A DNA stretch of 64,000 nt from a phage, in sequence record PQ724393.1. One strand, written 5' to 3'. Under the pieces are notes generated by a model. It worked only from the letters and a program-made list of their open reading frames with translations. It ran no database searches and was not told the DNA's origin. Position numbers and translations under genes: made by a program. Positions 20,563 through 49,591 of the stretch are shown in pieces (position 1 is the stretch's first letter; each line of letters begins with the position of its first letter).

Positions 20563-21456
20563 TTAAAGGACCACGTCCTCATAACTTGGCATTTCGTGCC
20601 CAGAATGGATATGGGCACCGAAATAAATGAATTCAGCCAGACCAGGATGGAATACTAAACCTGGGTTCTCATGATAAATGATATGCGGTCTTGATTTCAG
20701 AATCTGATAATACTCAACCTTACTCGGTTTGAATTTAACAATCTCTACATCAGGACGATAGTCTTCACGCTTAAATGAATCATTAGGGTTGGTGATATAA
20801 AGACGAGCACCTTCAGCCGCAGCTTGGTCTACAACTCTTTCGAATTGATAGCACTTATCCGAAATACGGAATGGATGGAAAATACCATCAATTTTAATAG
20901 GCGCTAGACCTTCAGAGTAACGCTCAATTACTGCAGGATTAATTACCTTTTGGTCTACAAAAATCTTATCAGAGGATGCACCTCGTGACACCAGGACGTC
21001 TTTCTGGCATTGATTCAGGACTGTAGTATAAAGTGAACGTTCAACTGAAGCCACATCAATATCAATGAACTCGTCGATATAATAACGAGGAACTTCAGGG
21101 TCCATTGTGATATTAAAGTTGAATTGTACAGTATGAGCACCATCATAACCTGTGATATCGGTTACCAGTCCTGAGCAATCATAGTATTCGATTAGTGAAT
21201 CGACTACAAACTCATTTTCAGACCAGAAATGTTTACGGGTTTCATAAGCATTTTCTTTATACCAAAGTGGTACGAAATTCAGTTCTGGGAATAATTCAAT
21301 GCATTCTTTGATATCGCTCGAATTTCTAGGATAAGCCAGATAATCACCTGGACGAGCACGATTTAAATGGAGTTGAAAATTGCCGTCCTTAAGGACGGCA
21401 TATTCACCTGTTTCGTAACTACGCATACTGAAAATAGGAACGATAAACAAACTCAT
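20563..21456 (-). CDS. hypothetical protein (297 aa) in beta-glucosyltransferase slot
   Basis: No similarity to recalled T4 beta-gt; ATGA-coupled to gene 42 stop. Confidence 0.6.
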   Translation of the reverse strand: MSLFIVPIFSMRSYETGEYAVLKDGNFQLHLNRARPGDYLAYPRNSSDIKECIELFPELNFVPLWYKENAYETRKHFWSENEFVVDSLIEYYDCSGLVTDITGYDGAHTVQFNFNITMDPEVPRYYIDEFIDIDVASVERSLYTTVLNQCQKDVLVSRGASSDKIFVDQKVINPAVIERYSEGLAPIKIDGIFHPFRISDKCYQFERVVDQAAAEGARLYITNPNDSFKREDYRPDVEIVKFKPSKVEYYQILKSRPHIIYHENPGLVFHPGLAEFIYFGAHIHSGHEMPSYEDVVL

Positions 21457-22151
21457 TTCAGGAAACCTCGGACGTAGTCAAAATCACGTTCAAACACGTG
21501 TGCACTTACCATGGTGTGGGAATACGTACCTAAACCAACACCACACTGTTCAGCAATAAATGCCATCAGTTTACCCTGCAGATAGAAATCCAGCTGCATA
21601 ACAACAGCGCAGTTTTGTGAACGCATATGGGTGTGTGCATACAAACGCCCGTCACGAATATAATACGTTACCGAATCGGTGCAAGGGTATTCTAAGGATT
21701 CGTCAGAATCAAGGAGGGCTTGGTCTTGTTCTTGGAGAATCTGGAACACAACTCTTCGCGAGTTGGCCTTTTCTTTAAGCTCTTTAAGTAGGGCTGGGAG
21801 TTGGGCCGCAATTCGAGGTCCATAGAAAGTGTTGAAGTTTGCAGGCAATACGTCACTTTTCGGCTTATCAATGAACTTAGCAACATTAGGGTATTCCTTA
21901 AATGCTTCGGCAGCGTCAGTACCACCAGAAATCATAAATTTCCAAAAGGATTCGGCATATTCATAACTGATACGATTGATACGTGGGTCGGTGAATTTAT
22001 AGGTGCTGACATCCAGTACTTCTATAGAAGCAGAACCAATTTCATAACAACGTCCGATACGAGAATCAACTGCAAACTGTGGAGCTTCCAGGATTTCTTC
22101 GTTCATTTGTTTAAATGCATTTTCAAAACTAACAGCGGTAATGTGTTTCAT
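21453..22151 (-). CDS. 42: dCMP hydroxymethylase-like enzyme (thymidylate synthase fold), gp42 position
   Basis: 232 aa; EYPCTDSVTYYIRD...HMRSQN resembles T4 gp42 FMCTNTVQYLIRD...MRSND; divergent. Confidence 0.7.
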   Translation of the reverse strand: MKHITAVSFENAFKQMNEEILEAPQFAVDSRIGRCYEIGSASIEVLDVSTYKFTDPRINRISYEYAESFWKFMISGGTDAAEAFKEYPNVAKFIDKPKSDVLPANFNTFYGPRIAAQLPALLKELKEKANSRRVVFQILQEQDQALLDSDESLEYPCTDSVTYYIRDGRLYAHTHMRSQNCAVVMQLDFYLQGKLMAFIAEQCGVGLGTYSHTMVSAHVFERDFDYVRGFLK

Positions 22152-22684
22152 TTATTCACCTTATTTTCAATATATTCGTTCAGACGTTTTAATTCTACCA
22201 TATCAACATTAAGCAAATTATTATGGCCGTCATGATTTAAGATTTTAAACACGTTTTCAAAACATGTTTCGTATTGCTGGATAGTTAGGTTGAACTCATC
22301 TTTGGTTAATTTAATAAGGTCATCTTCGAAGTCTTCGTCTAATGGGTTGCGAGTTAAAATAACTTCGATAACGTTAAATTCAGATTTAAACCCTTTCCAA
22401 TCTTCCAGTTCTACATAAGGGTCCATTTCACCACGAAGGAATCCCGAGTAAACAATATTACTAGGATACCCACGGTCTAAGATGTAGACAAAATTAGGGT
22501 CTAAAAACTTATACAGAGTTTCAACTAAAGCCTTGTCATTATCAGTCCCTAATGAAATGCATTTGCCATTAATCTTTTTAGGGAAATCAATAAGACGATA
22601 TTTCTTATCAGATAAAAGTGATTCAATTAAAGTAGACTTCCCGGAATTATCCGGGCCGTCGATAACAATGATTTTTGGTTTCAC
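22148..22684 (-). CDS. P-loop kinase (thymidylate/dNMP-kinase-like)
   Basis: 178 aa; Walker A IIVIDGPDNSGKST, DRGY motif; GTG start overlapping upstream stop. Confidence 0.6.
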   Translation of the reverse strand: MKPKIIVIDGPDNSGKSTLIESLLSDKKYRLIDFPKKINGKCISLGTDNDKALVETLYKFLDPNFVYILDRGYPSNIVYSGFLRGEMDPYVELEDWKGFKSEFNVIEVILTRNPLDEDFEDDLIKLTKDEFNLTIQQYETCFENVFKILNHDGHNNLLNVDMVELKRLNEYIENKVNK

Positions 22685-23064
22685 GGATGATATGCCTTAT
22701 AACTATCAAGAGTTCCTTCACGAACCAATTCTTTAAAGTGGTCTGGACGGATTGCTCGGTCATCGATGATAAAAGTATAACTCGGCTTGTGTGTAAGCAA
22801 ATTGTGATATTTCAATCCAATTTTTTCAAGGTTCTTAACCAATGCAGGAACTACTTCAACCAAGATTCGACCTGGGCCACATGAAGTCATGCCACGGGCA
22901 GTGAATAATGTAATCTCGTACCCTTCATCATAAAGCTTATTAATCATGGACACCATTTCGGTGTCCGGTTTAAAGTTCTCATAATCACGGTCATGGTTCC
23001 AAATCGTGATTGTGTTATCGATATCAAAACATAAATGTGGCTTATTTTCTACTCGATGCGACAT
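22681..23064 (-). CDS. HAD-superfamily phosphatase
   Basis: 127 aa; motif I CFDIDNTIT (DxDxT); start reset to ATG 23064 (TAATG overlap). Confidence 0.6.
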   Translation of the reverse strand: MSHRVENKPHLCFDIDNTITIWNHDRDYENFKPDTEMVSMINKLYDEGYEITLFTARGMTSCGPGRILVEVVPALVKNLEKIGLKYHNLLTHKPSYTFIIDDRAIRPDHFKELVREGTLDSYKAYHP

Positions 23065-24737
23065 TAAATTTTCTTCCATTGTTTGTGGAGTTCAGTAGAA
23101 CCTGTAGGTTTATATTTTACACCAGTTTCCTGGTCAAGCAAAACCCACTTATCAGGACAACGAGTAATAATTTGAGCCGTGATAGGGTCACGAACTTCAT
23201 CGACAAATTCACCAGTAATAAGCTTACGCTTACGAGGATGCCGCTTCAGCAGCACACTCAGTTGGTACAAACCGTTATAATAAGCACCCAGAGCTTTCAG
23301 AGGGTTATTCTTAAAGTAACCTGCCAGAGCCATCCAAATAACAGCAATCCAGAGCTTGTGCTTAAATGTGCACATAGGAATATCGTCTAAAGGCATAACC
23401 TTTTCAATATCAACGAATACACGAGTTCCATTACGAGTTAATCCACCCCATAGAGGGTCTGAGTTAAATTTGTCATAGCCATCGATAGAATAAAGCACCT
23501 TAGCTTCATCATAAATCGCAGGGCCTTTAGAACTATTACCGAAATAACCACGTGGGTCGATGATTTTAATATCACCTTCGTCCGACAGCATAATATTACT
23601 GTAGTGCGGGTCGCCATGAATAAGTTGGTACGGCTCTTTATGTTCAGACAGAATTTCTAGTGCGTGGCGGAGAAGTTTTTCAGGGTCGCCTACTTTGAAA
23701 TCGTTAACATGGGTAATGCCTTGTGGAGCAAAGCCTTCAATCAATCCAGCAATAGAAGCATTACGAATAAGGACCTTGTCCAATACTTCTTTCTTAACAT
23801 CAGAATACCATTGCTCATCGGACGGATTATCGATAGTTCCACCAAATGAACGTAATGCACTAATGACCTTATAAACCATGAGGACTTTAGTTTCTTTAGA
23901 CATAAACCGGTAGGCATCTGCCATGGTGCGACCAAAGATACGTTCCATTTTAATGAATTCGCCTGGAGCAAAGTCTACAATGCTCGGAACAAATTCAGAA
24001 TCAATAGAATTATACCAATTGATTTCTTTAGATTGGATTTCTTTACCTAATTCGTTGGTAGGTACTTTAATAGCCAGATTCTCAGTGAACTCTAATTTAT
24101 TAAATTCACGGTTAATTTCAGAATCTTCATGGGCCCTAGCCAGTTTCAATTTGTCACCGACATCAACCACAAAGTCCAGCTTACGTTCAGTCAAATGGAC
24201 CATCGAATCCAGGTTGTCTGCAAGGTCTTCGCCATAATTAGAACGGTCGAAACCTGTCCAATTAGCCACCTGATACAAACCAACCACACCACCGCCAGTA
24301 CCAATTTCACGCAAGTACGGTTCTTCAAATGTAAAACGACAGTCGGTCCCATAGGTATAACAGTAGTCGTTATCCCACTCAACTTTATGACCTTCAGGAA
24401 TAATATCACACCAGTTAAACAAGACATTATGCCCGATGATATCTTCGGCAATGCAATCGATAGCATGAGCTGAACCGTTGGCCACATCTACGTTACGAAT
24501 AGTGAATTTAGGCTTATCACTGGTAATCATGTTAATGGATTTAATGTAACCCTTAACGAGGTCATTAAATTTGCTGTGAATAACCAGAATAATTTCATCT
24601 GATTGGTTACTATACAAATCATACAAATGTTTTAGTACTGTATGCTGTTTGTAGTTAACCAATACCTTCGGGATTTCGTTAGTAATTGGATACAACCGTG
24701 AGCCAAGACCCGCGCCTAAAATAACAACCTTTTTCAT
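23064..24737 (-). CDS. bifunctional sugar-1-phosphate nucleotidyltransferase / kinase
   Basis: 557 aa; N-terminus VVILGAGLGSRLYPIT (GxGxRL of RmlA/GlmU-type); C-terminus LIHGDPHYSNIMLSDEGDIKIIDPRGYF (HGD..N...D APH/choline-kinase-like); SD GAGGAA before ATG 24737. Confidence 0.7.
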   Translation of the reverse strand: MKKVVILGAGLGSRLYPITNEIPKVLVNYKQHTVLKHLYDLYSNQSDEIILVIHSKFNDLVKGYIKSINMITSDKPKFTIRNVDVANGSAHAIDCIAEDIIGHNVLFNWCDIIPEGHKVEWDNDYCYTYGTDCRFTFEEPYLREIGTGGGVVGLYQVANWTGFDRSNYGEDLADNLDSMVHLTERKLDFVVDVGDKLKLARAHEDSEINREFNKLEFTENLAIKVPTNELGKEIQSKEINWYNSIDSEFVPSIVDFAPGEFIKMERIFGRTMADAYRFMSKETKVLMVYKVISALRSFGGTIDNPSDEQWYSDVKKEVLDKVLIRNASIAGLIEGFAPQGITHVNDFKVGDPEKLLRHALEILSEHKEPYQLIHGDPHYSNIMLSDEGDIKIIDPRGYFGNSSKGPAIYDEAKVLYSIDGYDKFNSDPLWGGLTRNGTRVFVDIEKVMPLDDIPMCTFKHKLWIAVIWMALAGYFKNNPLKALGAYYNGLYQLSVLLKRHPRKRKLITGEFVDEVRDPITAQIITRCPDKWVLLDQETGVKYKPTGSTELHKQWKKI

Positions 24738-24797
24738 TATCTGTTCCTCAAGTGAATGTAGGTACATTATACACTATTTTTAATAAATTGGTATTGC

Positions 24798-25298
24798 TTA
24801 AATCTTATCTTTACCGATTTCAATACACCGTTCTATTGCCGCCGGTACTTTGGTCTTGAGCTTATTGATTTGTTTCTTATAATCACGGGCTTTATCGAAG
24901 CTCTCGGTTTCGAGCATTTCGTAATAACGAGCCTCGTGGATGGAAATCTGTAGATTGATATGGTTTACGCACATCGCATACAGTTTCTGCTTTTTGTACA
25001 AATCATCTTGACGCTTCATTTCTGCCTGGTGTTTGGCTAGTACCGCTTCACGCTTAGACTCTTGTTCACGTTGGAATTCGATTTCCCTTTGAGCATATTT
25101 TGCACAGTTATTACCGCATTGATTATTAGCTCGGGTATACACAAGCCCAGAACCAGCACGGAATTTCATTTCACCGTCATATTGTTTCTGTTCAGCTGCG
25201 ATACGAGCTTTACCAACTTCATCAGCCGAAACTGCATCGCCATATTGGACCGCGCAACCTGATAGGAGCATACTCATTGCGATAATTAACTTTTTCAT
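24798..25298 (-). CDS. putative lipoprotein (166 aa)
   Basis: Signal peptide with lipobox LLSGC; SD AAGGGAA. Confidence 0.6.
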   Translation of the reverse strand: MKKLIIAMSMLLSGCAVQYGDAVSADEVGKARIAAEQKQYDGEMKFRAGSGLVYTRANNQCGNNCAKYAQREIEFQREQESKREAVLAKHQAEMKRQDDLYKKQKLYAMCVNHINLQISIHEARYYEMLETESFDKARDYKKQINKLKTKVPAAIERCIEIGKDKI

Positions 25299-31961: not shown

Positions 31962-33640
31962 TCTATCACCGTGAATCGTCCAACTTTCTTCATTTGAAGA
32001 TGTTGGCCATAAGCTTGTGGGTCGTGGTCCCTGTGGCTGATTATAAAAACATTACTGTCTTCAAGACTATTAAGAATACTTGCAATCGATTTAACAGCCT
32101 CAGCGTCAACTGCTCCGTCAAAAACTTCATCCAACACTAATGTACTGATGTGGACCCCACTGACTTTTTCAGCAATATCACGCCAGGTAAAAAGTAGTGC
32201 GATATCAATACGTGCTTTCTCACCCTGTGAAAATGAAGCATAACTAAAGTCTTCACGTCCACGTGATTTAATCGTCTCATTGAATTCTTCGTCTAGGGTA
32301 AAGACGTAGTCGGCTTCCATAATCTTCAAATAAGAATTTATCTGCTTATTAAAGATAGGAATGTATTTCTTAATAATGGAACCTTTAATACCGGTATCCT
32401 TCAACATTTCTGTTAGAATTCCACGATGATATTTTTCCATTACCAATGTGGATTTGGTAGAGACGATTTTATCAAGCTCCGCTTGAAGCGCGGCAATCTC
32501 TTCGGCATTACTTACGAACTCAGCAGCGGCTTGGTCGATTAATACTTTAACCTTTTTAGCTTTCTCTACGGCAGTAATGGCTTGTTGCTTATGAGTAGCT
32601 ATCTGGGATTTAATAGCCAGCGCTTTATTACGTTGCTCAGTTACTTGGTCTTTAATAAGTTTAAGCTCTTGGTATTGCTCATTAATCTTATCCAAAGATT
32701 TTTGAAGCTCAAAGTTTTTATCCTTAATTTTAGTAAGGATATTACCATGCTCTTCTAACCCTTGCATACACGTAGGACAATGGCCACCTGTTTCGTATAA
32801 CTTAACCACCTTTGTAAAGGTTGCCATATCATTTTTGATTGCAAATCCTTTATTACTCAGGTCACTCATGGAGTTGCTAGGGTCATCATCTACGATAACA
32901 TTGAGTAATTCATCAGTTAGTTTTTCTATATTGCCCTTCGCAGTCCTGGCTTCTTTAACGAGCTCATCATACATTAATTGCAGACGGGCAGCGTTCTCGC
33001 CGGATAATTTACGTTGACGTTCTTCGTTGTCATTATAAATTTTAATCTGTTGGGTAATAGAATCCTGTTTAACGTCTATTACCTGGATTTGGCTATTAGT
33101 CTCACGAATCAGAGATTTGTTCAACTTATCCATATCCGCTAATACAGAAACCTCTAAAAGGTCTTCCACCAGCTTTCGACGCGCTGGGGTTGACAAACCC
33201 ATGAAGGGGGTATACCCTGCCGTGCCAAGAACGACAATCTGTTTGAAGCTTGCATAGGACATTCCGATAAGCTGTTCAAATTCTGCTTGGAAGTCTTTAC
33301 TGCTGGCAGATTCATCAAGACGTTCACCGCCACAAGAGATTTCAAAAACGTTCGGTTTTTGCCCACGTTTGATGTAGTATTCTTTGCCATCATATTCCAT
33401 CCACAGTTCGACCAAAAGGTCTTTCTTGTTACTTGAATTAATCAACTGCCCTTTCTTAACATCGCGAAAAGGCTTACCGAACAGAGCAAATGTTACGGCT
33501 TCAAGGAACGTAGATTTCCCTGCACCATTTTTACCAGTGACTAAGGTCTTTTGGACCTTGTCGAGTTGGATTGTAATAGGCTGTTGGCCCACTGACATGA
33601 TATTTTTATACGTTACTTTCTTTAACTTAAAAGTCTTCAT
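31958..33640 (-). CDS. 46: recombination endonuclease subunit gp46 (Rad50/SbcC-like)
   Basis: 560 aa; Walker A TGKNGAGKST, coiled coil, C-terminal signature/Walker B LVLDE. Confidence 0.9.
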   Translation of the reverse strand: MKTFKLKKVTYKNIMSVGQQPITIQLDKVQKTLVTGKNGAGKSTFLEAVTFALFGKPFRDVKKGQLINSSNKKDLLVELWMEYDGKEYYIKRGQKPNVFEISCGGERLDESASSKDFQAEFEQLIGMSYASFKQIVVLGTAGYTPFMGLSTPARRKLVEDLLEVSVLADMDKLNKSLIRETNSQIQVIDVKQDSITQQIKIYNDNEERQRKLSGENAARLQLMYDELVKEARTAKGNIEKLTDELLNVIVDDDPSNSMSDLSNKGFAIKNDMATFTKVVKLYETGGHCPTCMQGLEEHGNILTKIKDKNFELQKSLDKINEQYQELKLIKDQVTEQRNKALAIKSQIATHKQQAITAVEKAKKVKVLIDQAAAEFVSNAEEIAALQAELDKIVSTKSTLVMEKYHRGILTEMLKDTGIKGSIIKKYIPIFNKQINSYLKIMEADYVFTLDEEFNETIKSRGREDFSYASFSQGEKARIDIALLFTWRDIAEKVSGVHISTLVLDEVFDGAVDAEAVKSIASILNSLEDSNVFIISHRDHDPQAYGQHLQMKKVGRFTVIE

Positions 33641-33861
33641 GTATTGTTCTCACGAATTGTTTGTTCAGCATATTCTAGCATTTCTTCGGAAGAAGCAAAC
33701 ACGTCGTCAAGTTCCATGGCCCATGAAACACCTTCAGAATATTCAGAAGTGACATACATAGTTCCGGTATACCAAGAACCATCCACGTCCCATTCTACAT
33801 TACCAAACCAGCCATCGCCAATATGAAAATCATGTTTATACATTTTCATCATTATAAGCAT
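33637..33861 (-). CDS. hypothetical protein (74 aa)
   Basis: Track ORF. Confidence 0.5.
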   Translation of the reverse strand: MLIMMKMYKHDFHIGDGWFGNVEWDVDGSWYTGTMYVTSEYSEGVSWAMELDDVFASSEEMLEYAEQTIRENNT

Positions 33862-34099
33862 CCTTGATGCATGATTCAGCCATATGAATTAATGTTTCTG
33901 GAGTATCATCTACCATTACATTAAAGCTAAATTCCACAGCCCAATCAGTGGCAACATAAACTTTAATAAGCTCGTTGGTATCACGAGTGCTCACGGCTTC
34001 AAACCAGAACTTAATAATACTCGTTTGTCCATCGTCATCAATAACTGTGCAGTCATGCTCCAGTTCAAGTCCTGATTTTTTGAATTCATCTAAAGTCAT
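33836..34099 (-). CDS. hypothetical protein (87 aa)
   Basis: Track ORF. Confidence 0.5.
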   Translation of the reverse strand: MTLDEFKKSGLELEHDCTVIDDDGQTSIIKFWFEAVSTRDTNELIKVYVATDWAVEFSFNVMVDDTPETLIHMAESCIKDAYNDENV

Positions 34100-35118
34100 C
34101 GTGTAACCTCATTATAAAGTTGTGCAGCCATAGTCTTAAGGGCTTTAACATCGTCTTCAGTGTGGCCATCAGGAAGGGCATCGATATAGTCATACATCAT
34201 ATCCAAGAGGGACTTGACTTCATCCTCCTCTTCAGAATCATCGATATCAACACTATTATCTACCTTAGACACAATACGTAAAGAATGGACGACCTTTTCA
34301 AGCTCTGATTCGAACTTAGTAAGGCCGTCATCAATTTTATCGACTATAACACGAACTGCGATATTTGTAAAATCTTTGTAATCGATAGTCGCGTTAGGAT
34401 AATGAATCTTACGATGCCAACAGGTTTCATTAATGATGAAATCCATTTTATGAGTTTCGGTATCGAAAATCCAGAAACCACGAGGGTCGTTCTCATCACC
34501 TGCAGTCAGGGTCCATGGAGTACCAATGTACTTAACGTTTGCTGCATCAGAAATAGTGTGGAAGTGGCCTGACCAAACTTGCTTATACTTTTTAAGGAAA
34601 TCAGGTTCTAAACCATGGGATTTCATTCCTTTATAGAAATAGAAACCATTTAATTCCCAATGCCCAATACAGAAATCTGCTGTGGTATTTTTGATATGGT
34701 CCATGATATCGGTCGTGTTTTCTTCACACATCCATGGAATCAAATCAATTTCGGTGCCATCAAAGTTAACCGTAGTAGGTTTTTCAATAACCTTGATATG
34801 GTCATATTTACCCAGAACTTCAGAAGCAGCATTAGGAGTCAAGGTATTTTTGTAGTGCATATCATGATTACCAACAACGGTATACATGGTAATGCCATTA
34901 GCTTTAAGCAAATCAGAGATTTCGCGAGCGAATTCCATGCACTTGTGAGTAATTGCTTTACGAACATCAAAGATATCACCGTATTGAATCCATACAGTAA
35001 TGCCATTTGCTTTAGAATAATCAATAGCGTCTTGGATACCTTGACGTTGGATATTTTGTACCCACACATCATCAGCCTTAACTCCAAGGTGCCAGTCACC
35101 TGTGTTTAATATTTTCAT
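34096..35118 (-). CDS. 47: recombination nuclease subunit gp47 (Mre11/SbcD-like)
   Basis: Start reset to MKILNTGDWHLG (ATG 35118; track start is TTG); phosphoesterase motifs GDWHLG, GNHD, GHFH. Confidence 0.92.
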   Translation of the reverse strand: MKILNTGDWHLGVKADDVWVQNIQRQGIQDAIDYSKANGITVWIQYGDIFDVRKAITHKCMEFAREISDLLKANGITMYTVVGNHDMHYKNTLTPNAASEVLGKYDHIKVIEKPTTVNFDGTEIDLIPWMCEENTTDIMDHIKNTTADFCIGHWELNGFYFYKGMKSHGLEPDFLKKYKQVWSGHFHTISDAANVKYIGTPWTLTAGDENDPRGFWIFDTETHKMDFIINETCWHRKIHYPNATIDYKDFTNIAVRVIVDKIDDGLTKFESELEKVVHSLRIVSKVDNSVDIDDSEEEDEVKSLLDMMYDYIDALPDGHTEDDVKALKTMAAQLYNEVTR

Positions 35119-35258
35119 AAGCCAAGCACCGTTATCGAAATACAAAATAAAATTATTGAAATGAACCCGTCAGAAGTGGAAAAGAATCCTATCCAACAAG
35201 CTCTTGTGAATGTGTAGAATGCCATGAATAACACGACATATCCTAAAAATAATTCCAT
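35115..35258 (-). CDS. small hydrophobic membrane protein (47 aa)
   Basis: Not in track; SD GAGGAGAA; own translation MELFLGYVVLFMAFYTFTRACWIGFF...; stop overlaps gp47 ATG. Confidence 0.4.
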   Translation of the reverse strand: MELFLGYVVLFMAFYTFTRACWIGFFSTSDGFISIILFCISITVLGL

Positions 35259-35300
35259 ATGTTCTCCTCAGTTGGTTCATTTTATCATCCCGAATATAAA

Positions 35301-35328
35301 GCAAAAAAGGAAGCCCTAGGCTTCCTTT
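35301..35328 (-). terminator. rho-independent terminator
   Basis: AGGAAGCC-TAGG-GCTTCCT followed by TTTTTTGC. Confidence 0.65.
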
Positions 35329-35489
35329 CCAATTAATACGCCATACAGAGGTTCGTGATTAGACCTGAACTTGATAGGCTTATAGGTAATAGTACCTTCA
35401 TTTTCTGCTTTAATACGAGCGGCTTCAAATTGAAGTATCATCTCATTTTTGTCAGATTTAATCTTATCAAAATCCATCGAATTCGTCAT
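35316..35489 (-). CDS. hypothetical small protein (57 aa)
   Basis: Not in track; SD AAGAGG; stop inside terminator hairpin. Confidence 0.3.
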   Translation of the reverse strand: MTNSMDFDKIKSDKNEMILQFEAARIKAENEGTITYKPIKFRSNHEPLYGVLIGKEA

Positions 35490-35547
35490 TCATATAACCT
35501 CTTAAACTTTTTCGTATTCGTCATTCATTAGCCTGCAGTCCATGTTA

Positions 35548-35748
35548 TCATCTCTGCCACCACTTCTTAAGTTGATGAGAATCTACCCAAACCTTGGCTA
35601 CGGGCTCAATCTGAAAAATACCATCAGAATATCGGCCCATCATTTTGTATTCGGTTTCGGACTGCTTAATACAGATATTACCGTATGAGCGAAGTCTAAA
35701 GGCGGCTCCAATAAGAAGCCGTTTAAAGGGTTTATTTACCAGAGCCAT
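35548..35748 (-). CDS. hypothetical protein (66 aa)
   Basis: Track ORF. Confidence 0.4.
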   Translation of the reverse strand: MALVNKPFKRLLIGAAFRLRSYGNICIKQSETEYKMMGRYSDGIFQIEPVAKVWVDSHQLKKWWQR

Positions 35749-36043
35749 TGACGATTTCCCAAATTTGTTTGCGGGTGGATTCCCACATCAATTGAACAAG
35801 TTCATCAGTAACAGGTTGACGGTAAATACCACGTAATTTAATTAAAGCGTACTTATATGCTTCAAAGTTGTTTTCAAGTACAGCGCCTTGGGCGTGGAGA
35901 TTTAAACGACGGATTTCACGAGCATTCTTCTTAAGAATCTTAGCCGCTTGAGAATTAGCTTCTTTAATATTGTGCTCTTCTAAACGTTGCTGGGCTTCTT
36001 CAATTTGCTCGTCAGTCAATTGAGAAATGTCATGGCTTTGCAT
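35732..36043 (-). CDS. hypothetical protein (103 aa)
   Basis: Track ORF. Confidence 0.5.
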   Translation of the reverse strand: MQSHDISQLTDEQIEEAQQRLEEHNIKEANSQAAKILKKNAREIRRLNLHAQGAVLENNFEAYKYALIKLRGIYRQPVTDELVQLMWESTRKQIWEIVNGSGK

Positions 36044-36044
36044 A

Positions 36045-36275
36045 TTAATCCTTTGGAGTCAATTCGATAGTGAAGTAGAAATTAGCGTTCTCAACATGAT
36101 AACGATAATCTACGTTATTATCAGGAGAAGTGAATTCAATATTCCTGACGTTAAGTGGGTCAATATCAATAGGAAGGCCTTTAACATCCCGTAATATCAA
36201 TTTAATAAAATAAGGGAGTGCTTCGAAGTCTTCCATTCCATCTAAAAGTGGAGTGATATTAATCTGATGTTCCAT
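36045..36275 (-). CDS. hypothetical protein; start uncertain (ATG 36275 or GTG 36311)
   Basis: Track ORF 36045..36311 overlaps gp55 end. Confidence 0.45.
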
Positions 36276-36816
36276 ATAAAAAATCCAGTTCGCCAACTTT
36301 AGGTTCGGCACTCTTATCAGACCCTGGTGCTTTAGTTAAAGAGGTTTCATACTGTGTCATTTTATCGTAGATATCTTGGATAAAGGTTTCATCTGCAATA
36401 CCTACCATATCGTCATCATTACTGTCATAGACATTATGGACGAAGTAGCTATATTTCTTTGCCATTTCTTTACGTTCTTTTTTGATACGCTGAACGAAGG
36501 CATTAAAACAAGCCATAGTGATATATGCATGTGGGTTGTCGTATTTTGTTTCGTCGAAGTTGTGAAGACCTTTAATCGAAGCTTCGATTCCATCAGCAAT
36601 CATTTCTTGCTTCCAGGATTGGGTATATCCGGAGAAGTTGAAACGCTTACTTAGTCCTTCAGCAATGAGCATAATAGCCAACCCTATAGTATCATTTTGT
36701 CTAATGATTTTATTAGGGTCGGTATTTTCTCTAAGCTCTGTTTTCCATTGGGTAATAGCTTTCAGAAGCTCCTTATTATTTACATAGTTATTTTTAGTCA
36801 GTTTAATTTCGGTCAT
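36259..36816 (-). CDS. 55: late-transcription sigma factor gp55
   Basis: 185 aa; [52 protein letters not shown] essentially matches recalled T4 gp55. Confidence 0.93.
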
Positions 36817-36842
36817 TGTTACCTCAGATAACTCAAATCATA

Positions 36843-36884
36843 GGTCTATTATATCATAGTATTTGAAGACCCGTTTAAAGCATC
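36843..36884 (-). promoter_or_regulatory. putative promoter region upstream of gene 55
   Basis: Coding strand GATGCTTTA (MotA-box-like), 14 nt, TACTAT, then TGATATAAT. Confidence 0.3.
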
Positions 36885-37146
36885 AACGGAGTAAGCAATA
36901 AGCCTGAAATACTGTTTCAAGAATTTTTTTGAACTCTTCGAAGGAAGGGGCTCCTTCAAATCCTTGGCTTTGAATATAAAGGCAGAATTGTTGGTAAAGG
37001 ACTAAATATTCGGATTGGTTGTATTTGGAAATATGAGACTTCCACACTTCAGAAGTCTCTCCGCAAATAAACTCAACATTCATATAGTTATCTATTAAGA
37101 AAAATCCTAAGCCTTCATAAGCTAATGTTATGGATACAGGCGTCAT
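36883..37146 (-). CDS. hypothetical protein (87 aa)
   Basis: Track ORF. Confidence 0.5.
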   Translation of the reverse strand: MTPVSITLAYEGLGFFLIDNYMNVEFICGETSEVWKSHISKYNQSEYLVLYQQFCLYIQSQGFEGAPSFEEFKKILETVFQAYCLLR

Positions 37147-37409
37147 TGTAGGAATCTGGCTCCTTCTAGTGCATCATCAAGATTATCAAACTCATCAACG
37201 TAATCAATACCGCCGACCTCATCTTTAGCGTATAGCCAGTACTGTTTAAATTCATATTCAATAATAAAGTGGTCACCCTCAATCTGGAGAACCCCATCAC
37301 TATTAAATTGAACTGTATAACCGGTAAAGCGGACATCATTCAAGAGTTCTTCTTTCATAGCAATCATTTCCAAGTTTTTATCGTAATTAGAGAGTTTTAT
37401 TTTAATCAT
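37143..37409 (-). CDS. hypothetical protein (88 aa)
   Basis: Track ORF. Confidence 0.5.
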   Translation of the reverse strand: MIKIKLSNYDKNLEMIAMKEELLNDVRFTGYTVQFNSDGVLQIEGDHFIIEYEFKQYWLYAKDEVGGIDYVDEFDNLDDALEGARFLQ

Positions 37410-37650
37410 TTAAATAATCCTCAAATTCATTTAATGTCATGCCTTCGTCCCAAGCTATTTTAGGATCGGGCATTTTCATATAAGTGGTCTTAGAGCTTAT
37501 AGGAAATATCCTGAAATCGCGATGACTTCCACTTAACATATTAGCCGCTTTTATAATAGTTTCACTATTATTCATCATAGGGGTACGTTGGAAACCGGCT
37601 AAAGCTTTAAGGACTATTATAACCGATACATCTTCAGGCAAATTACTCAT
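37402..37650 (-). CDS. hypothetical protein (82 aa)
   Basis: Track ORF. Confidence 0.5.
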   Translation of the reverse strand: MSNLPEDVSVIIVLKALAGFQRTPMMNNSETIIKAANMLSGSHRDFRIFPISSKTTYMKMPDPKIAWDEGMTLNEFEDYLND

Positions 37651-37976
37651 TTCGCAGCCTTAACAATTTTCAGGTCAACGAATTTTTTCTTACGTTGATT
37701 CTTCATACGACGGATGGTTTTGTCTGTGATTTCACCTGGCTGCCAAGCTTTAGATTCAACACCAAAGGCGGCCACATCAAACTCGTCGAGAATATATTGA
37801 ACCAGGATTTCACGAATACCGTTCTTACCAATTTTTTGGTCTTTAGAGTGCATGATTGGTAACAGTTCAGCAACCCATCGGTCAAGAACCTGAGGAGTTA
37901 CAAAGCCGGTTTTCATCAGTTCGTTAACTTTATCGAAAGCGAAAGAGTTCAGTACGTTTTTAATAGCTTGTGACAT
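37647..37976 (-). CDS. hypothetical protein (109 aa)
   Basis: Track ORF. Confidence 0.5.
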   Translation of the reverse strand: MSQAIKNVLNSFAFDKVNELMKTGFVTPQVLDRWVAELLPIMHSKDQKIGKNGIREILVQYILDEFDVAAFGVESKAWQPGEITDKTIRRMKNQRKKKFVDLKIVKAAK

Positions 37977-38044
37977 AATAATTTCCTCAGTTTAAAATTT
38001 ATAATCCATGGGACCATTATACTCTGGTCCCAAGAGTTTGTAAA

Positions 38045-38293
38045 CTATTTTTGTGCTAATGCACCTTTCCAACCTTCGTACATCGCCGCAGCCGATATTA
38101 ATATTGCTCCTGCGCATTTTGAATATTTGTTATTCCAAAACCAGTTTAGAAAAACTTCGTCATCAATACCTTGGGCTATCATATTTTCAAAGAATTGACG
38201 ACGAGCTTCAGCAACACGTTGTGATAATTTAGATTCAGGATTCATTTTAAATTTTCCAGTTACCGTTTTCATCAATAAATTTAATCCAGTCAT
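38045..38293 (-). CDS. hypothetical protein; start uncertain
   Basis: Track ORF; alternative ATG at 38245 lies just after upstream stop. Confidence 0.45.
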   Translation of the reverse strand: MTGLNLLMKTVTGKFKMNPESKLSQRVAEARRQFFENMIAQGIDDEVFLNWFWNNKYSKCAGAILISAAAMYEGWKGALAQK

Positions 38294-38378
38294 TTACTGA
38301 CCACGTGGTTGTATCGCCCTTTGGACTGACATTTAAAGTATACAACCCTTGCTTAAAAAGCATTCGTTTGATATTCAT
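38247..38378 (-). CDS. hypothetical small protein (43 aa)
   Basis: In-frame ATG 38378 with SD GAGGAAAA; longer track form overlaps neighbours. Confidence 0.35.
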   Translation of the reverse strand: MNIKRMLFKQGLYTLNVSPKGDTTTWSVNDWIKFIDENGNWKI

Positions 38379-38385
38379 ATTTTCC

Positions 38386-38679
38386 TCAGCTGTAACGATA
38401 ACATTCGTTTGATTTACGTTTTGCAACTTGATGAGAAGTATTGTAATCAGGTTCATCGTCGTTGTAAACATCTTTTTTCAGCTTTCTCACTTCTTTACGA
38501 AGTTGGCGATTCATTTCATTCTTAACTTCAGAATCAACACCACGCATACGTTTCCACTTGTCAGAACGGAAGATATTTTCCTCAACCAGTTCCTGACTTA
38601 CACCGTCGGGCGCTTTACGGCGTCCGGAATAATAAAAATCTTTTACAGACAATTCTTTACGGCGAATAGTTTTACCCAT
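38386..38679 (-). CDS. hypothetical basic protein (97 aa)
   Basis: Track ORF. Confidence 0.5.
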   Translation of the reverse strand: MGKTIRRKELSVKDFYYSGRRKAPDGVSQELVEENIFRSDKWKRMRGVDSEVKNEMNRQLRKEVRKLKKDVYNDDEPDYNTSHQVAKRKSNECYRYS

Positions 38680-38681
38680 AG

Positions 38682-38936
38682 TTACCTCAGCAGTTTGTAT
38701 CCAATAAGATGTTTAATGTATTGGACATCTTTGACATCCAAATCTAACTTAATATCTTTCAGGCGTTCGGCCAGAGTAAGAAATGTTACGCGTTTCCAAT
38801 TCTTAACAGGGCAACAATAAGTTTTCGGCCCGTTAGCGATTTCAATATTTTTATCTGTGACGGTGATAAAAATCAAACGTTCATCATCGAGATTAAGGGT
38901 GACGACACTTTTGGTTGAATGTAGTTTCAGGCTCAT
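38682..38936 (-). CDS. hypothetical protein (84 aa)
   Basis: Track ORF. Confidence 0.5.
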   Translation of the reverse strand: MSLKLHSTKSVVTLNLDDERLIFITVTDKNIEIANGPKTYCCPVKNWKRVTFLTLAERLKDIKLDLDVKDVQYIKHLIGYKLLR

Positions 38937-39115
38937 AATTTAATTTCCTTAGCTATCGAACAAAACAAACTACGGTCACATACCATCAATGGAATATTTC
39001 TATGGTCTAGTACACGATACCATACGTCTGAATCGCTAGCAGCAATTACACGAACCGCACGCCCATTTACCAAATAATACTGGTCGGCTTTAATTTCTTT
39101 ATCTTGGATAGTCAT
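38933..39115 (-). CDS. hypothetical protein (60 aa)
   Basis: Track ORF; conserved early promoter and SD GAGGAGA upstream. Confidence 0.5.
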   Translation of the reverse strand: MTIQDKEIKADQYYLVNGRAVRVIAASDSDVWYRVLDHRNIPLMVCDRSLFCSIAKEIKL

Positions 39116-39144
39116 AATGTTCTCCTCATGTGTTGATAGGATAG

Positions 39145-39173
39145 ACTATAACACGTGAGGAGAGGAAGTAAAC
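39145..39173 (-). promoter_or_regulatory. conserved early promoter
   Basis: GTTTAC-17-TATAGT; flanking arms CCTCACGTG/CACATGAGG. Confidence 0.55.
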
Positions 39174-39174
39174 A

Positions 39175-39492
39175 CTAATCTTCAATTAAATCTCGGTCAT
39201 AACCAAGTTCAATCAAAAGTGATTTGAAGGTAGGAATATTTTCTATTTTCTTATTATCGACAAATATGACAGGATAGCGTATCGCCAAGCTCTTGAAGCC
39301 TGCACGTTTGGCCAATGATACTATAAGAGGCTTGTCATATACTGCGCCTGACGGCGTCTGGTTAATCACAGGATAGAAAGTATGTGGGATAGAAAGGGAA
39401 TTTAGGAGCGATAGAACAGCAATGCACCCTGGACAGCGCATGACTGTCTCAGGGATACCATAAATCTCAATTTTAGTTAACTTTTGGTCCAC
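39175..39492 (-). CDS. thioredoxin-fold redoxin (CPGC motif), NrdH-like by position
   Basis: 105 aa; RCPGCIA CxxC motif near N-terminus. Confidence 0.5.
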   Translation of the reverse strand: MDQKLTKIEIYGIPETVMRCPGCIAVLSLLNSLSIPHTFYPVINQTPSGAVYDKPLIVSLAKRAGFKSLAIRYPVIFVDNKKIENIPTFKSLLIELGYDRDLIED

Positions 39493-39769
39493 AGGAAATA
39501 ACTCCTTGGTAGTCCCAAGTTTTTAGAACTTCGTCTTCATTAGTTCCGTATGGGACGTAAATCTGGATAAGGAACCCAGTATCATCAAAAGAGAAGTAGA
39601 CGGTAGGTTTAATACCGTGAATCTCTGACAGGGCATAGATGTCCTTGAGGTCGTCTTCCTTACCTTTAAAGAATTCAGGGTTCAGGTCACAGTCATGGAA
39701 GTACCAATCATCACCAAACTTGTCCCATGTGGTCCAATTCAAAGCTACATATTCTTCAAAACGTTTCAT
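39473..39769 (-). CDS. hypothetical protein (98 aa)
   Basis: Track ORF. Confidence 0.5.
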   Translation of the reverse strand: MKRFEEYVALNWTTWDKFGDDWYFHDCDLNPEFFKGKEDDLKDIYALSEIHGIKPTVYFSFDDTGFLIQIYVPYGTNEDEVLKTWDYQGVISCGPKVN

Positions 39770-39981
39770 TCTTTCACCTTCATCATTTTTGCTATAACAC
39801 TATGAACAGCCTGGATTCGTTTGTTGAACTCAGACCCTTCAAGACCTTTTTCAGTACTCAGCGCACCAATAATAACGAACAGCAATCCAAATGGGATGGC
39901 CAGGATTAAAAGGCACACGATAAACAGAACTAATGTAATATTGGCCAGGATATCAGAAACAGCATTACGAAATTTATTCAT
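39766..39981 (-). CDS. small membrane protein
   Basis: Hydrophobic core; start taken at in-frame ATG 39981 (alternative 39993). Confidence 0.45.
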   Translation of the reverse strand: MNKFRNAVSDILANITLVLFIVCLLILAIPFGLLFVIIGALSTEKGLEGSEFNKRIQAVHSVIAKMMKVKE

Positions 39982-40102
39982 TAAAGAACCCACATATTAG
40001 TTACAACAAATAACCATTGAGCAGGATACTCAACACCCATAATACGCACTGCATCGTTCAGAGATTCAGCTAGAGCATAGAATGTGTAGCCATAAAAATT
40101 AA

Positions 40103-40576
40103 TCATTTAAGCGATTTCCTCAGTTGTTTTTTAAATGAATCGACCATTTGTTTCTTTGTGTCAGATTCATTATAAGTCATTCCATGTGAAAGCATTTCAG
40201 CAATCATTTCTTCCTTACCTAATCTACTGAACTCTTTGGTTTTATCAGTTACAAAAGTAGGGTGAATAGGATTCTTGGAGCAATCATTCTCGAGGTACGC
40301 AACTAGATTTTTAAGACACTCGAGGTAGTCGTTGCCACGACCTTTAAGACCAGAGCGTACAAATTGGTGTCTGCTGCGTCCTTCCCAGGCGTTACAAAGA
40401 TTACAGAGCAACCCACGAACTCGTCCGGCTTGTAGCCCTTCTAAATCATGAGAGTGGTCTAAGTGGTTACTTTGAACATCCGTATTTAGATGTTGTTTAC
40501 ATACTAAACACAAGCCCTGTTGGTCTTTGTACATCTGTTCTTTTTGTTCTTTATAAAGCTTGCCAGTCAACAACAT
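40103..40576 (-). CDS. 49: endonuclease VII (Holliday junction resolvase) gp49
   Basis: 157 aa; MLLTGKLYKE...HLDHSHDL...RGLLCNLCNA...NESDTKKQ...FKKQLRKSLK matches recalled T4 endo VII. Confidence 0.92.
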   Translation of the reverse strand: MLLTGKLYKEQKEQMYKDQQGLCLVCKQHLNTDVQSNHLDHSHDLEGLQAGRVRGLLCNLCNAWEGRSRHQFVRSGLKGRGNDYLECLKNLVAYLENDCSKNPIHPTFVTDKTKEFSRLGKEEMIAEMLSHGMTYNESDTKKQMVDSFKKQLRKSLK

Positions 40577-40611
40577 AATAAACCCTTACCATTATTAGAT
40601 AAGGGTATTTA

Positions 40612-40845
40612 TTATTTTTCGAATGTACTATAAAACGAGCGATGTAATCGTTTAAATTGACGCATCATCTTTTTGGTAGGTCGAGTGGACAATCCTACAC
40701 ATGTAGCCATAAACTGGTCAACAGGACTTCCTTTGATAAGAAGTTTCCAGACCTTTGCGCCATTTAATTTTTCAGTATAAATCAGTTCAGTTTTCATAGT
40801 AAAACCCAAACTCCATATCGATGAAATCATTGTTTGAAGGTTCAT
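40612..40845 (-). CDS. small basic protein, PTKRQ-motif family; start uncertain
   Basis: C-terminal STRPTKKMMRQFKRLHRSF. Confidence 0.45.
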   Translation of the reverse strand: MNLQTMISSIWSLGFTMKTELIYTEKLNGAKVWKLLIKGSPVDQFMATCVGLSTRPTKKMMRQFKRLHRSFYSTFEK

Positions 40846-40919
40846 TATACTCTATTTCGGAATCGTTGTAAACAGGTTCCTCTGGCTCGGTAGTTTTCCA
40901 CCGAGCGACATACCATGGC

Positions 40920-41228
40920 TTAACGGTCACACCACCAACTACTTACTTCAAAATCGGGTTCACCGTGTTCCCAGTACCAAGGGCCGATTGGATGCCAATC
41001 GCCATGTTCATCTTCTTCAAATTCTTCAGATTCTAGCCCAACATATTGCCATTGGACTTCATAAGCAGTGCCACCGATTACAACAGTATTCTCGCCATAT
41101 GGGTTAGCCACAACAAAATCAATACCTTCTGCTTTAGCCAACCAAACCATATATTCGTATAGTTTATATTCTAGGTCGTCTTCAGTACCATCGCCTAGAA
41201 AAATGGTTTGTTCATTTAATCCAATCAT
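40920..41228 (-). CDS. hypothetical acidic, Trp-rich protein (102 aa)
   Basis: Track ORF. Confidence 0.5.
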   Translation of the reverse strand: MIGLNEQTIFLGDGTEDDLEYKLYEYMVWLAKAEGIDFVVANPYGENTVVIGGTAYEVQWQYVGLESEEFEEDEHGDWHPIGPWYWEHGEPDFEVSSWWCDR

Positions 41229-49133: not shown

Positions 49134-49591
49134 TATGGATTTGTTTTGTCCTCGAAGTGGATTACAGGACACATCTTAGATTTACGAGCTTTAATGTATT
49201 GAATAACGATATTTTCTTTAGTTTCTCGGCCTTCACGCTCAGCTTGAATACGTTGCCATTCCTTTTCTTCTCTACGGGCATCATACCATGCGTGTAAATT
49301 CATCGCACCAAATGCCAAACCGATGGATAGTGCAATAATAAGAGCTATTACAATCAACCCTAAAACAAACCCTAGACTCAACAGAACAGGAGTACTTAAT
49401 ACAAAGAAATGCTCTAATACACCAGCTCCTGCAACAGTTAATCCAAAAAGCGTACTACCTGCAACAACAGCACAAGCAAAACAAGCCCAAATCATTTTCC
49501 AGAAATATGCACATAAAGAGTGTGGTCGAGAATGGCTGTCATAAAAACGGTCGTGTAATTTAACGTGCCAAGAGTTTGAATTGATAATCAT
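49133..49591 (-). CDS. membrane protein (152 aa)
   Basis: SD AAGGAAA; long hydrophobic segments then basic tail. Confidence 0.55.
   Translation of the reverse strand: MIINSNSWHVKLHDRFYDSHSRPHSLCAYFWKMIWACFACAVVAGSTLFGLTVAGAGVLEHFFVLSTPVLLSLGFVLGLIVIALIIALSIGLAFGAMNLHAWYDARREEKEWQRIQAEREGRETKENIVIQYIKARKSKMCPVIHFEDKTNP

Follow-up and report, generated by a model that had tools for sequence, protein, structure and literature searches.

We find that the analysed stretch of phage DNA (the window; 64,000 nucleotides of sequence record PQ724393.1) is, as judged from its sequence, the early-gene arm, running from rIIA up to the e region, in a JS98-like Dhakavirus, a T4-type coliphage nearest to fDHCT2, and that three junctions of this arm lack genes all of which T4 carries: alpha-glucosyltransferase (a-gt), dam and nrdG-nrdD. 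These absences, pointed out in an initial annotation of the DNA, are real but are lineage differences already documented, and they are best explained, with a probability of about 90%, as independent cassette-level differences at junctions known to be plastic.

The window matches fDHCT2 at 95.7-96.7% and JS98 at 91-94% nucleotide identity across its whole length, with a coverage of about 93-100% in these comparisons, and its gene order is that of JS98 gene by gene, with protein identities mostly of 89-99%. Gene order matches throughout in the Dhakavirus genomes JS98, fDHCT2, IME08, C6, WG01 and MX01 (91-96% nucleotide identity); JS98 is Dhakavirus JS98, and fDHCT2 is unclassified as to genus in its own record. 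JS98 and other Dhakavirus genomes share the empty a-gt and nrdG-nrdD slots of the window, and their uvsX-43 cassette proteins are 95-99% identical to its own. The window differs from JS98-type genomes in an additional HNH (mobB/mobC-like) ORF (48369-49172), an additional 82-aa ORF (37402-37650) and diverged alleles of gene 49 (75% identity to JS98) and of a-gt.5, which at 42% identity to the T4 copy but only 37% to that of JS98 is a mosaic allele. The 64 kb visible here belong to a genome of roughly 170 kb, of which the remaining ~105 kb were judged from these 91-96% identical relatives, and the relatives disagree with one another on dam.

Three junctions that lack T4 genes

Searches of the whole 64-kb window by tblastn with T4 a-gt, b-gt, Dam, NrdG and NrdD returned chance-level fragments throughout (best E = 0.027), and RB69 NrdD and NrdG and two more Dam types gave no match at E <= 1e-3; none of alpha-gt, beta-gt, dam, nrdD and nrdG was found within the window. 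The slot junctions fall precisely at gene boundaries by blastn: T4 homology stops at 35251 and starts again at 35295 at the a-gt slot, the dam slot is bounded by 13905 and 13925, and homology to RB69, T4 and the Gaprivervirus vB_EcoM_VR20 (VR20), of the sister genus, breaks off exactly at 39981 and restarts at 40106 at the nrdG-nrdD slot (Table 1).

Table 1. Features at the three junctions and in the cassette between uvsX and gene 43
Feature	Position	Strand	Comparison
Gene 56, dCTPase/dUTPase	13341..13862	-	93% identity to RB69 gp56, 67% to T4; Pfam dUTPase_2
dam slot	13906..13924		19 bp, against 884 bp (dam) in T4; blastn breakpoints
66-aa membrane-protein ORF, opposite strand, in the 56-61 gap	13953..14153	+	65/66 residues as in MX01 ORF29
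Gene 61, primase	14150..15178	-	99% identity to JS98, 61% to T4
Predicted first arabinosyltransferase, 297 aa, RB69 gp46:47 orthologue	20563..21456	-	63-70% identity to RB69 ORF046c + ORF047c
Thymidylate-synthase homologue, 232 aa, predicted 5-hydroxy-dCMP synthase	21453..22151	-	80% identity to RB69 gp48; Pfam Thymidylat_synt
Nucleotide kinase, RB69 gp45-like	22148..22684	-	38% identity to RB69 gp45; phrog_761 thymidylate kinase
HAD-type phosphatase, RB69 gp51/AfhF-like, 132 aa	22681..23079	-	62% identity to RB69 gp51; phrog_1238
Bifunctional sugar kinase + nucleotidyltransferase, RB69 gp52:53/AfhE-like, 567 aa	23064..24767	-	41-44% identity to RB69 ORF052c/053c
Gene 47, SbcD-like recombination nuclease subunit	34096..35118	-	98% identity to JS98 gp47, 70% to T4 gp47
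47.1, 47-aa membrane protein	35115..35258	-	82% identity to T4 47.1; phrog_6693, E = 1.7e-29
a-gt slot	35252..35294		43 bp, against 2123 bp (a-gt + mobB) in T4
Terminator-like hairpin + T run, end of a-gt.2	35304..35330	-	12-pair stem, then TTTTT; pattern match only
a-gt.2 orthologue, 57 aa	35316..35489	-	56% identity to T4 a-gt.2; phrog_2140
a-gt.3 orthologue, 66 aa	35548..35748	-	45% identity to T4 a-gt.3; phrog_1648
a-gt.4 orthologue, 103 aa	35732..36043	-	43% identity to T4 a-gt.4; phrog_951
a-gt.5 orthologue, 75 aa	36045..36272	-	42% identity to T4 a-gt.5; phrog_1169
Gene 55, late sigma factor	36259..36816	-	97% identity to JS98, 79% to T4
nrdH glutaredoxin, kept	39175..39492	-	61% identity to T4 NrdH over 103 aa
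55.8 orthologue, final gene before the nrdG-nrdD slot	39766..39981	-	42% identity to T4 55.8
41-codon ORF in place of nrdD + nrdG	39981..40106	-	124 bp, against 2399 bp in VR20
Gene 49, endonuclease VII	40103..40576	-	67% identity to T4, 75% to JS98

Between gene 47, for which the ATG at 35118 gives a 340-aa product of JS98 length, and gene 55, the initial annotation had seen only small ORFs and no alpha-glucosyltransferase, and this holds: there are five small ORFs, and tblastn is negative. Each has its own T4 orthologue (42-82% identity) and its own PHROG family, on which ground we rejected a truncated glucosyltransferase among them; the profile comparison that had been proposed for truncated homologues thus identified none. 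The proposed synteny comparison, run with T4, RB69, VR20 and JS98, places a-gt in T4 and in none of the other three, and the 47.1/a-gt.2 junction without a-gt, which in the window includes a terminator-like hairpin, is common to the window, RB69, VR20 and JS98, with VR20 carrying the same series of small ORFs from 47.1 to 55.8 at about 80-93% DNA identity. The a-gt gene is confined to T-even phages (Petrov 2010, PMC2993671), and together with the homing endonuclease gene mobB it is an insertion peculiar to them; for this gene T4 is the exception, and to call it expected but absent makes T4 the norm.

The absence of a dam-like methyltransferase between genes 56 and 61 was likewise borne out. 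The two genes are separated by 287 bp without a methyltransferase, Dam queries from T4, MX01 and fDHCT2 found no match in the window by tblastn, and a Pfam scan that took in 27 mid-size window ORFs found no methyltransferase domain among them. The 66-aa ORF in this gap corresponds in length, position and a W-N...P...G...P-V motif to RB69 ORF029w and to an unannotated T4 ORF. Dam is an accessory cassette, and the 56-61 slot lacks it in RB69 and in nearly all Dhakaviruses, the exception being MX01, in which a three-way alignment of the window, JS98 and MX01 gives a slot of about 1.4 kb (ORF28 + dam). The MX01 gene is of T4/T2 type, lies in the canonical slot and is 75% identical to T4 Dam; the cassette is found at >=99% identity in MX01 only.

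The interval from gene 55 to gene 49 (36816-40103) holds ORFs of <=109 aa only (55.1-55.8, nrdH and RB69-type small ORFs), confirming that nothing of nrdD or nrdG size is present there. T4, RB69 and VR20 all carry nrdG-nrdD at the 55.8-49 slot, where the window has instead a 41-codon ORF that shares a few bases with each neighbour, with gene 49 at its stop (ATGA) and with 55.8 at its start (TAATG), and is conserved in JS98 and Bp7; the contiguous 55.8-49 junction is common to 48 independent phage records. Retention in T4, RB69 and Gaprivervirus, taken with the exact 124-bp replacement in Dhakaviruses, indicates a derived loss: nrdG-nrdD is ancestral at this slot, and the 41-codon ORF is its exact replacement in the Dhakavirus lineage. 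That the loss can be polarised so cleanly is a modest but neat outcome of the comparison. We considered and rejected the 41-codon ORF as a fused NrdD/NrdG remnant, since neither its translation nor tblastn showed any resemblance, and a large ORF of fDHCT2 (687 aa) as a hidden NrdD, to which it is unrelated. With T4 and RB69 queries, tblastn found nrdG and nrdD neither in complete JS98 nor in fDHCT2 at positions outside 66001-124999 (the window-equivalent region), in agreement with the annotation tables. These absences, together with that in the window, support the earlier suggestion that anaerobic nucleotide metabolism is reduced. For its dNTPs the phage would depend on aerobic NrdAB, the genes for which lie outside the window (present in JS98, annotated in fDHCT2), and, without oxygen, on the NrdDG of its host.

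A predicted reduced arabinosylation cassette between uvsX and gene 43

The absence of a-gt had also been taken to support a different DNA-modification strategy. Such a strategy is encoded, in a cassette at 20563-24767 between uvsX and gene 43; the empty slot itself is no proof of it, since a-gt is restricted to T-even phages and is also missing at the RB69, VR20 and JS98 junctions. The cassette contains orthologues of gp48, gp46:47, gp45, gp51 and gp52:53 of the RB69/DLP3/HY126 pathway (Lee et al., NAR 2026, PMC13326640), and the window also shares with RB69 the dCTPase gp56 and the site of the cassette. The ORF for the 297-aa putative transferase is intact and has no Pfam match; the function and GT-B fold of transferases of the RB69 gp46:47 and DLP3 gp79 type are as assigned in PMC13326640. 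The best match to T4 gp42 in the window (tblastn) is the thymidylate-synthase homologue, at 24.5% identity over 159 aa. This homologue retains the catalytic Cys, with Glu at -3 (the ThyA L143 position) and Asp where ThyA has N177, and its LEYPC motif and VMQLDFY Asp are the same as in RB69 gp48, as are the active-site substitutions; RB69 gp48 is an O2-dependent 5hodCMP synthase (PMC13326640). In the 567-aa ORF, Pfam places an NTP_transferase domain at residues 13-110 and an APH domain at residues 356-427.

RB69 has in addition gp55 (arabinose-5-P isomerase, gp83 in DLP3), gp50, gp49 and a second transferase, gp3, of the second/third arabinosyltransferase type that gives poly-arabinosylation; for these four, tblastn found no match in the window, JS98 or the examined parts of fDHCT2. 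Two ORFs at the corresponding positions were considered as substitutes and rejected: a 166-aa ORF (24798-25298) at the gp55 position, which adjoins imm, has no SIS domain and encodes a predicted lipoprotein, the lipoprotein signal MKKLIIAASMLLSGC with an invariant G-C beginning 11/11 homologues; and an ORF in the gp3 slot between rIIA.1 and 39 (1009-1359), which encodes a 116-aa DUF7367 protein. The cassette is thus, by orthology, a reduced version of the RB69 pathway, with the sugar and sugar number of its product predicted only. Lee et al. (NAR 2026, PMC13326640) describe the arabinosyl-5-hydroxycytosine enzyme activities for RB69, DLP3 and HY126, and Dhakaviruses are listed among the carriers of the gene cluster (PMC13326640); a search of the available literature found no report on the chemistry of Dhakavirus DNA. 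Arabinosyl-5-hydroxycytosine is therefore predicted for Dhakavirus by orthology and by one comparative-genomics statement.

In the proposed route, modelled by orthology on activities from RB69, DLP3 and HY126, gp56 would convert dCTP to dCMP, and the thymidylate-synthase homologue, with flavin and O2, would hydroxylate dCMP at C5 to 5-hydroxy-dCMP, which kinases would raise to the triphosphate for incorporation by the polymerase. The AfhE-like and AfhF-like enzymes would convert arabinose-5-phosphate to UDP-arabinose, from which the single 297-aa glycosyltransferase would place arabinose onto 5-hydroxycytosine in DNA. No phage arabinose-5-phosphate isomerase was found, and the substrate would thus presumably come from host KdsD/GutQ; likewise, no second transferase of the RB69 gp3 type was found, and a mono-arabosyl product is predicted. 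Given the missing isomerase, gp50 and gp3 and an AfhE-like enzyme only 41-44% identical to that of RB69, the sugar or linkage made by the reduced cassette might differ from that of RB69, a variant that we regard as unlikely. The T-even glucosyl-hydroxymethylcytosine system follows the same logic, from dCTPase through a thymidylate-synthase-family enzyme acting on dCMP to a post-replicative glycosyltransferase, and its main cassette also lies between uvsX and gene 43. It differs in using gp42 with a-gt, b-gt or ba-gt, whereas the window has neither a-gt nor b-gt; the window enzyme, only 25% identical to T4 gp42, is of the hydroxylase (gp48) type, and the sugar is glucose in T-evens as opposed to the arabinose predicted here. 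At these junctions RB69 resembles the window in being without a-gt and dam, but it keeps nrdG-nrdD.

Molecular O2 is the source of the oxygen that the gp48-type enzyme adds at C5 (PMC13326640), and as a consequence strict anoxia could block supply of the replacement cytosine while the dCTPase and anti-cytosine nucleases remain active. Loss of NrdDG in Dhakaviruses might then be coupled to base chemistry, making these phages effectively oxygen-dependent replicators of gut origin, in which selection would not favour making dNTPs anaerobically; we regard this coupling as unlikely.

Alternative explanations

It is quite conceivable, at somewhat less than even odds, that the phage keeps GATC adenine methylation through a dam gene elsewhere in its genome, most likely between nrdB and nrdA, a region outside the window. 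Its closest relative, fDHCT2 (about 96% identity across the window), has there a 267-aa D12-class dam that is 31% identical to T4 Dam, which leaves the absence of dam from the whole phage genome unproven. Against this, copies of the fDHCT2-type gene above 90% identity occur in three records only, and in JS98 nrdB adjoins nrdA, with no dam by annotation or tblastn. What is established is absence from the 56-61 slot and from these 64 kb only; of the earlier claim, the part that concerns the slot stands and a genome-wide reading of it is insecure.

Relocation of a-gt/b-gt or nrdD/nrdG within the genome is, by comparison, extremely improbable. Accessory cassettes do shuffle in T4-type genomes, and the visible part is little more than a third of this one, yet T4 and RB69 protein queries found no match anywhere in complete JS98 or, for fDHCT2, beyond the window-equivalent region; the single large unnamed candidate, the 687-aa ORF of fDHCT2, is unrelated to NrdD, and JS98-type phages are reported to be without a glucosyltransferase (Petrov 2010, PMC2993671). 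The glucosyltransferase queries in these tblastn searches, negative in the window as well, were T4 a-gt and b-gt; the T2/T6 beta-alpha-gt is reported only in T-evens and CC31 (Petrov 2010, PMC2993671). The chance that the small ORFs in the 47-55 or 55-49 intervals are decayed remnants of a-gt, nrdD or nrdG, left by recent pseudogenisation, is close to nil: they are short and some are named a-gt.N in JS98 annotations, but such labels reflect position only, the ORFs have full-length T4 orthologues of the same size although T4 also has a-gt and nrdD/G, each has its own PHROG family, no fragment of the three genes appears in either interval at E <= 10 (tblastn), and the 41-aa product resembles neither NrdD nor NrdG. 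That the DNA carries unglycosylated hydroxymethylcytosine or ordinary cytosine, with no sugar decoration, was an open possibility in 2010 and would fit both the lack of a T4-type transferase in the window and the former annotation of the JS98-type thymidylate-synthase homologue as gene 42 (PMC2993671). We now consider it very unlikely, as this homologue has 80% identity to the RB69 5hodCMP synthase, an enzyme characterised by experiment, against only 25% to T4 gp42, and has as its neighbours a glycosyltransferase orthologue and enzymes of sugar-nucleotide synthesis. Independent cassette-level differences remain the preferred reading of the three absences.

Prior record and annotation

The JS98 genome was reportedly published in 2007. 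That JS98 and RB69, and JS98-type phages generally, are without glucosyltransferases was stated already in 2010 (Petrov et al., PMC2993671), and the replacement chemistry was solved for RB69, DLP3 and HY126 in 2025-26, Dhakaviruses being named among the carriers of the cluster (PMC13326640). The absences accordingly carry little weight as a discovery, and their practical value lies in annotation. The window is best annotated as Dhakavirus DNA whose arabinosylation cassette, predicted as such from orthology, is a reduced one; its 'gene 42-like' ORF would be better named 5-hydroxy-dCMP synthase, and the absence of dam at the canonical slot should not be extended to the whole genome. The a-gt.N names are likewise positional, and the product of a-gt.2 is no transferase.

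Placement of the window and the three absent genes

By megablast, the window falls among the JS98-like T4-type coliphages of the genus Dhakavirus, with Escherichia phage fDHCT2 the closest record (96.4% identity over 1-25000, 95.7% over 33000-41000 and 96.7% over 40001-64000), followed by JS98, C6, IME08, WG01, MX01 and others at 90-94%. G+C is ~39% throughout, almost all long ORFs lie on the minus strand, and with the T4-style JS98 annotation as a guide the sequence runs from inside rIIA to the region past e, in the order 39, dda, modA/B, soc, 56, 61, 41, uvsX, 43, 45, 46, 47, 55, 49, nrdC, tk, regB, denV and e. Inside a stretch that is otherwise 90-99% JS98-like there are mosaic spots at the a-gt.5 allele, gene 49 and an 82-aa ORF (see the table). 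An HNH ORF between nrdC.11 and the JS98 orf92 homologue shares 40% and 36% identity with the N-termini of T4 MobB and MobC, respectively; JS98 itself was reported to be without homing endonuclease genes.

The initial annotation held that alpha-glucosyltransferase (a-gt), dam and nrdD/nrdG are missing from their T4-conserved positions. We find that tblastn of all 64 kb with a-gt, b-gt, Dam, NrdG and both NrdD exons from the T4 record yields chance-level fragments only (best E = 0.027), that RB69 NrdD/NrdG and two further Dam proteins have no match in the window, and that no methyltransferase, glycosyltransferase, radical-SAM or glycyl-radical domain is detected by Pfam in 27 mid-size ORFs of the window. 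A comparison with T4, RB69, JS98, VR20 (Gaprivervirus, the sister genus) and the Dhakaviruses MX01 and Bp7 was used to polarise each absence; the three are separate phenomena, each with its own polarity. The observation is confirmed and its interpretation is partly supported; what it describes is an ordinary genus-level difference in gene content, whose elements were already published in 2007-2010 and 2026.

The glucosyltransferase slot and the modification cassette

Between gene 47, which indeed starts with the ATG at 35118, and the end of gene 55 at 36259 there are only small ORFs, five in number and without an a-gt match, as claimed. Each matches its own T4 counterpart and its own PHROG family; the a-gt.N names denote position, and none is a transferase fragment. 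T4 homology reaches 35251 and restarts at 35295, a spacing of 43 bp compared to 2123 bp in T4, and pattern matching places a terminator-like hairpin in this gap. RB69, VR20 and JS98 likewise pass directly from 47(.1) to a-gt.2, while T4 alone in the comparison carries a-gt and the HNH endonuclease gene mobB at this junction. According to Petrov et al. (2010, PMC2993671), a-gt belongs to "T-even type phages only", and RB69 and JS98 are cited there as phages that have gene 42/56 homologues but lack glucosyltransferases. At this slot the exception is thus T4 and not the window.

In place of the T4 genes segA, b-gt and 42, between uvsX and imm/43, the window carries a cassette of predicted arabinosyl-5-hydroxycytosine genes, with proteins 97-99% identical to those of JS98 orf38-42 and related to RB69 proteins. 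The 232-aa thymidylate-synthase homologue and RB69 gp48 share the catalytic Cys context LEYPC and an Asp at the ThyA N177 position. RB69 and DLP3 DNA contains 5-hydroxycytosine that is mono- and poly-arabinosylated; gp48 converts dCMP to 5-hydroxy-dCMP, using a flavin cofactor and taking the oxygen from O2; the initial arabinosyltransferase is proposed to be gp46:47, and UDP-arabinose is proposed to be formed by gp51 and gp52:53 together with gp55; Dhakaviruses are among the groups named as having the cluster (Lee et al., NAR 2026, PMC13326640). Given the orthologues and the common active-site residues, the suggestion of a different DNA-modification strategy is correct, since one of an already described type is positively encoded in the window.

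The cassette is not that of RB69 in full. The window, JS98 and the fDHCT2 parts examined gave no match to gp49, gp50, the arabinose-5-phosphate isomerase gp55 or the second transferase gp3. In the window a 116-aa DUF7367 ORF sits in the gp3 slot, and a 166-aa predicted lipoprotein beside imm in the gp55 slot. The lipoprotein has only 11 homologue clusters in a large protein database and, judging from its position, may serve in superinfection exclusion. In E. coli, KdsD/GutQ produce arabinose-5-phosphate; the host would supply this substrate, and the modification would probably amount to one arabinose per base.

dam as an accessory gene

No methyltransferase lies between genes 56 and 61, as proposed; T4 homology breaks at 13905 and restarts at 13925, leaving 19 bp where T4 has 884 bp, and RB69 and JS98 likewise lack dam here. 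MX01 carries a two-gene cassette exactly in this slot, a 186-aa ORF and a Dam 75% identical to that of T4; the cassette occurs at ≥99% identity in MX01 alone, and at ~74% over its full length in T2-type phages. A different, D12-class methyltransferase lies outside the window-equivalent region in fDHCT2, between nrdB and nrdA, where T4 has the homing endonuclease gene mobE; only three phage records hold copies at >90% identity, and a few T4-like phages have copies at ~78%. In this group dam is therefore a mobile accessory gene. For the phage of the window, its absence is established for no more than the canonical slot and these 64 kb, and a genome-wide inference is unsafe, as the closest relative has dam elsewhere.

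The MX01 186-aa ORF, which precedes dam, has a weak, sub-threshold match to DpnII endonuclease (E = 9e-4). DpnII cleaves GATC when unmethylated, and the two genes may form a GATC restriction-modification-like pair. Primase gene 61 is adjoined at its 3′ end by a 66-aa opposite-strand membrane-protein ORF, unannotated in the T4 RefSeq table and in JS98, whose length, position and W-N...P...G...P-V motif are kept in Dhakavirus, RB69 and T4.

Replacement at the nrdG-nrdD slot

T4, RB69 and VR20 carry nrdG and nrdD between 55.8 and 49. The window has no ORF of that size between 55 and 49, the largest being ≤109 aa (55.1-55.8, nrdH and a few RB69-type small ORFs), again as claimed. Homology to VR20, RB69 and T4 DNA ends exactly at the 55.8 start codon (39981) and restarts exactly at the gene 49 stop (40106), with a spacing of 124 bp compared to 2399 bp in VR20. 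These 124 bp form a 41-codon ORF that is translationally coupled at both ends, through ATGA at the stop of gene 49 and TAATG at the start of 55.8, where it overlaps its neighbours; it is unrelated to NrdD or NrdG, has no family match, and is kept in Bp7 and in JS98, where it is unannotated. The contiguous 55.8-49 junction occurs in 48 phage records, and ~800 others match the gene 49 half only. Annotation and tblastn reveal no nrdD or nrdG in whole JS98 or in fDHCT2 outside the window-equivalent region. The exchange is a derived, lineage-wide replacement in Dhakavirus, and the proposed reduction of anaerobic nucleotide metabolism is borne out in the window, in JS98 and in the searched fDHCT2 parts; nrdH and nrdC are retained, and nrdA/nrdB lie outside the window, as placed from JS98. 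With low probability, loss of nrdDG may go with the O2 need of the cytosine hydroxylase; RB69 retains both nrdDG and the hydroxylase, which argues against a strict link.

In Bp7, a 271-aa homing endonuclease occupies the gene 49 position after the 41-codon-ORF homologue, and the stretch examined has no annotated gene 49. RB69 and T4 NrdD and NrdG look near-identical by eye, far above the 60-80% of neighbouring genes, which hints that the cassette was exchanged recently or is under very strong constraint.

Features of the window and of related phages (L-numbers are locus handles; positions without a genome name are in the window)
Feature	Position	Strand	Remarks
Gene 56	13341-13862
66-aa ORF	13953-14153	+	T4 L002 7739-7939 (+); RB69 L007 16061-16258 (+), ORF029w
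Gene 61	14150-15178
Modification cassette	20563-24767
297-aa protein	in cassette		63-70% to RB69 ORF046c + 047c
232-aa thymidylate-synthase homologue	in cassette		80% to RB69 gp48, 25% to T4 gp42
178-aa kinase	in cassette		38% to RB69 gp45
132-aa HAD-type phosphatase	in cassette		62% to RB69 gp51
567-aa protein	in cassette		nucleotidyltransferase + APH-kinase domains; 41-44% to RB69 gp52:53
166-aa predicted lipoprotein (MKKLIIAASMLLSGC...)	24798-25298	-	between cassette and imm
47.1	47-55	-	82% to T4
a-gt.2	47-55	-	56% to T4
a-gt.3	47-55	-	45% to T4
a-gt.4	47-55	-	43% to T4
a-gt.5	36045-36272	-	42% to T4, 37% to JS98
82-aa ORF	37402-37650	-	phrog_5589; counterpart absent in JS98, RB69, T4
41-codon ORF	39981-40106	-	former nrdD-nrdG slot
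Gene 49	40103-40576	-	75% to JS98
HNH ORF	48369-49172	-	probable start 49133
186-aa ORF + dam	MX01 L009 2935-4274	+
D12-class dam	fDHCT2 L008 32451-33254	-	267 aa; 31% to T4 Dam
Homing endonuclease	Bp7 L013 4092-5029
nrdD-nrdG	RB69 L007 44977-47261		compared with T4 L002
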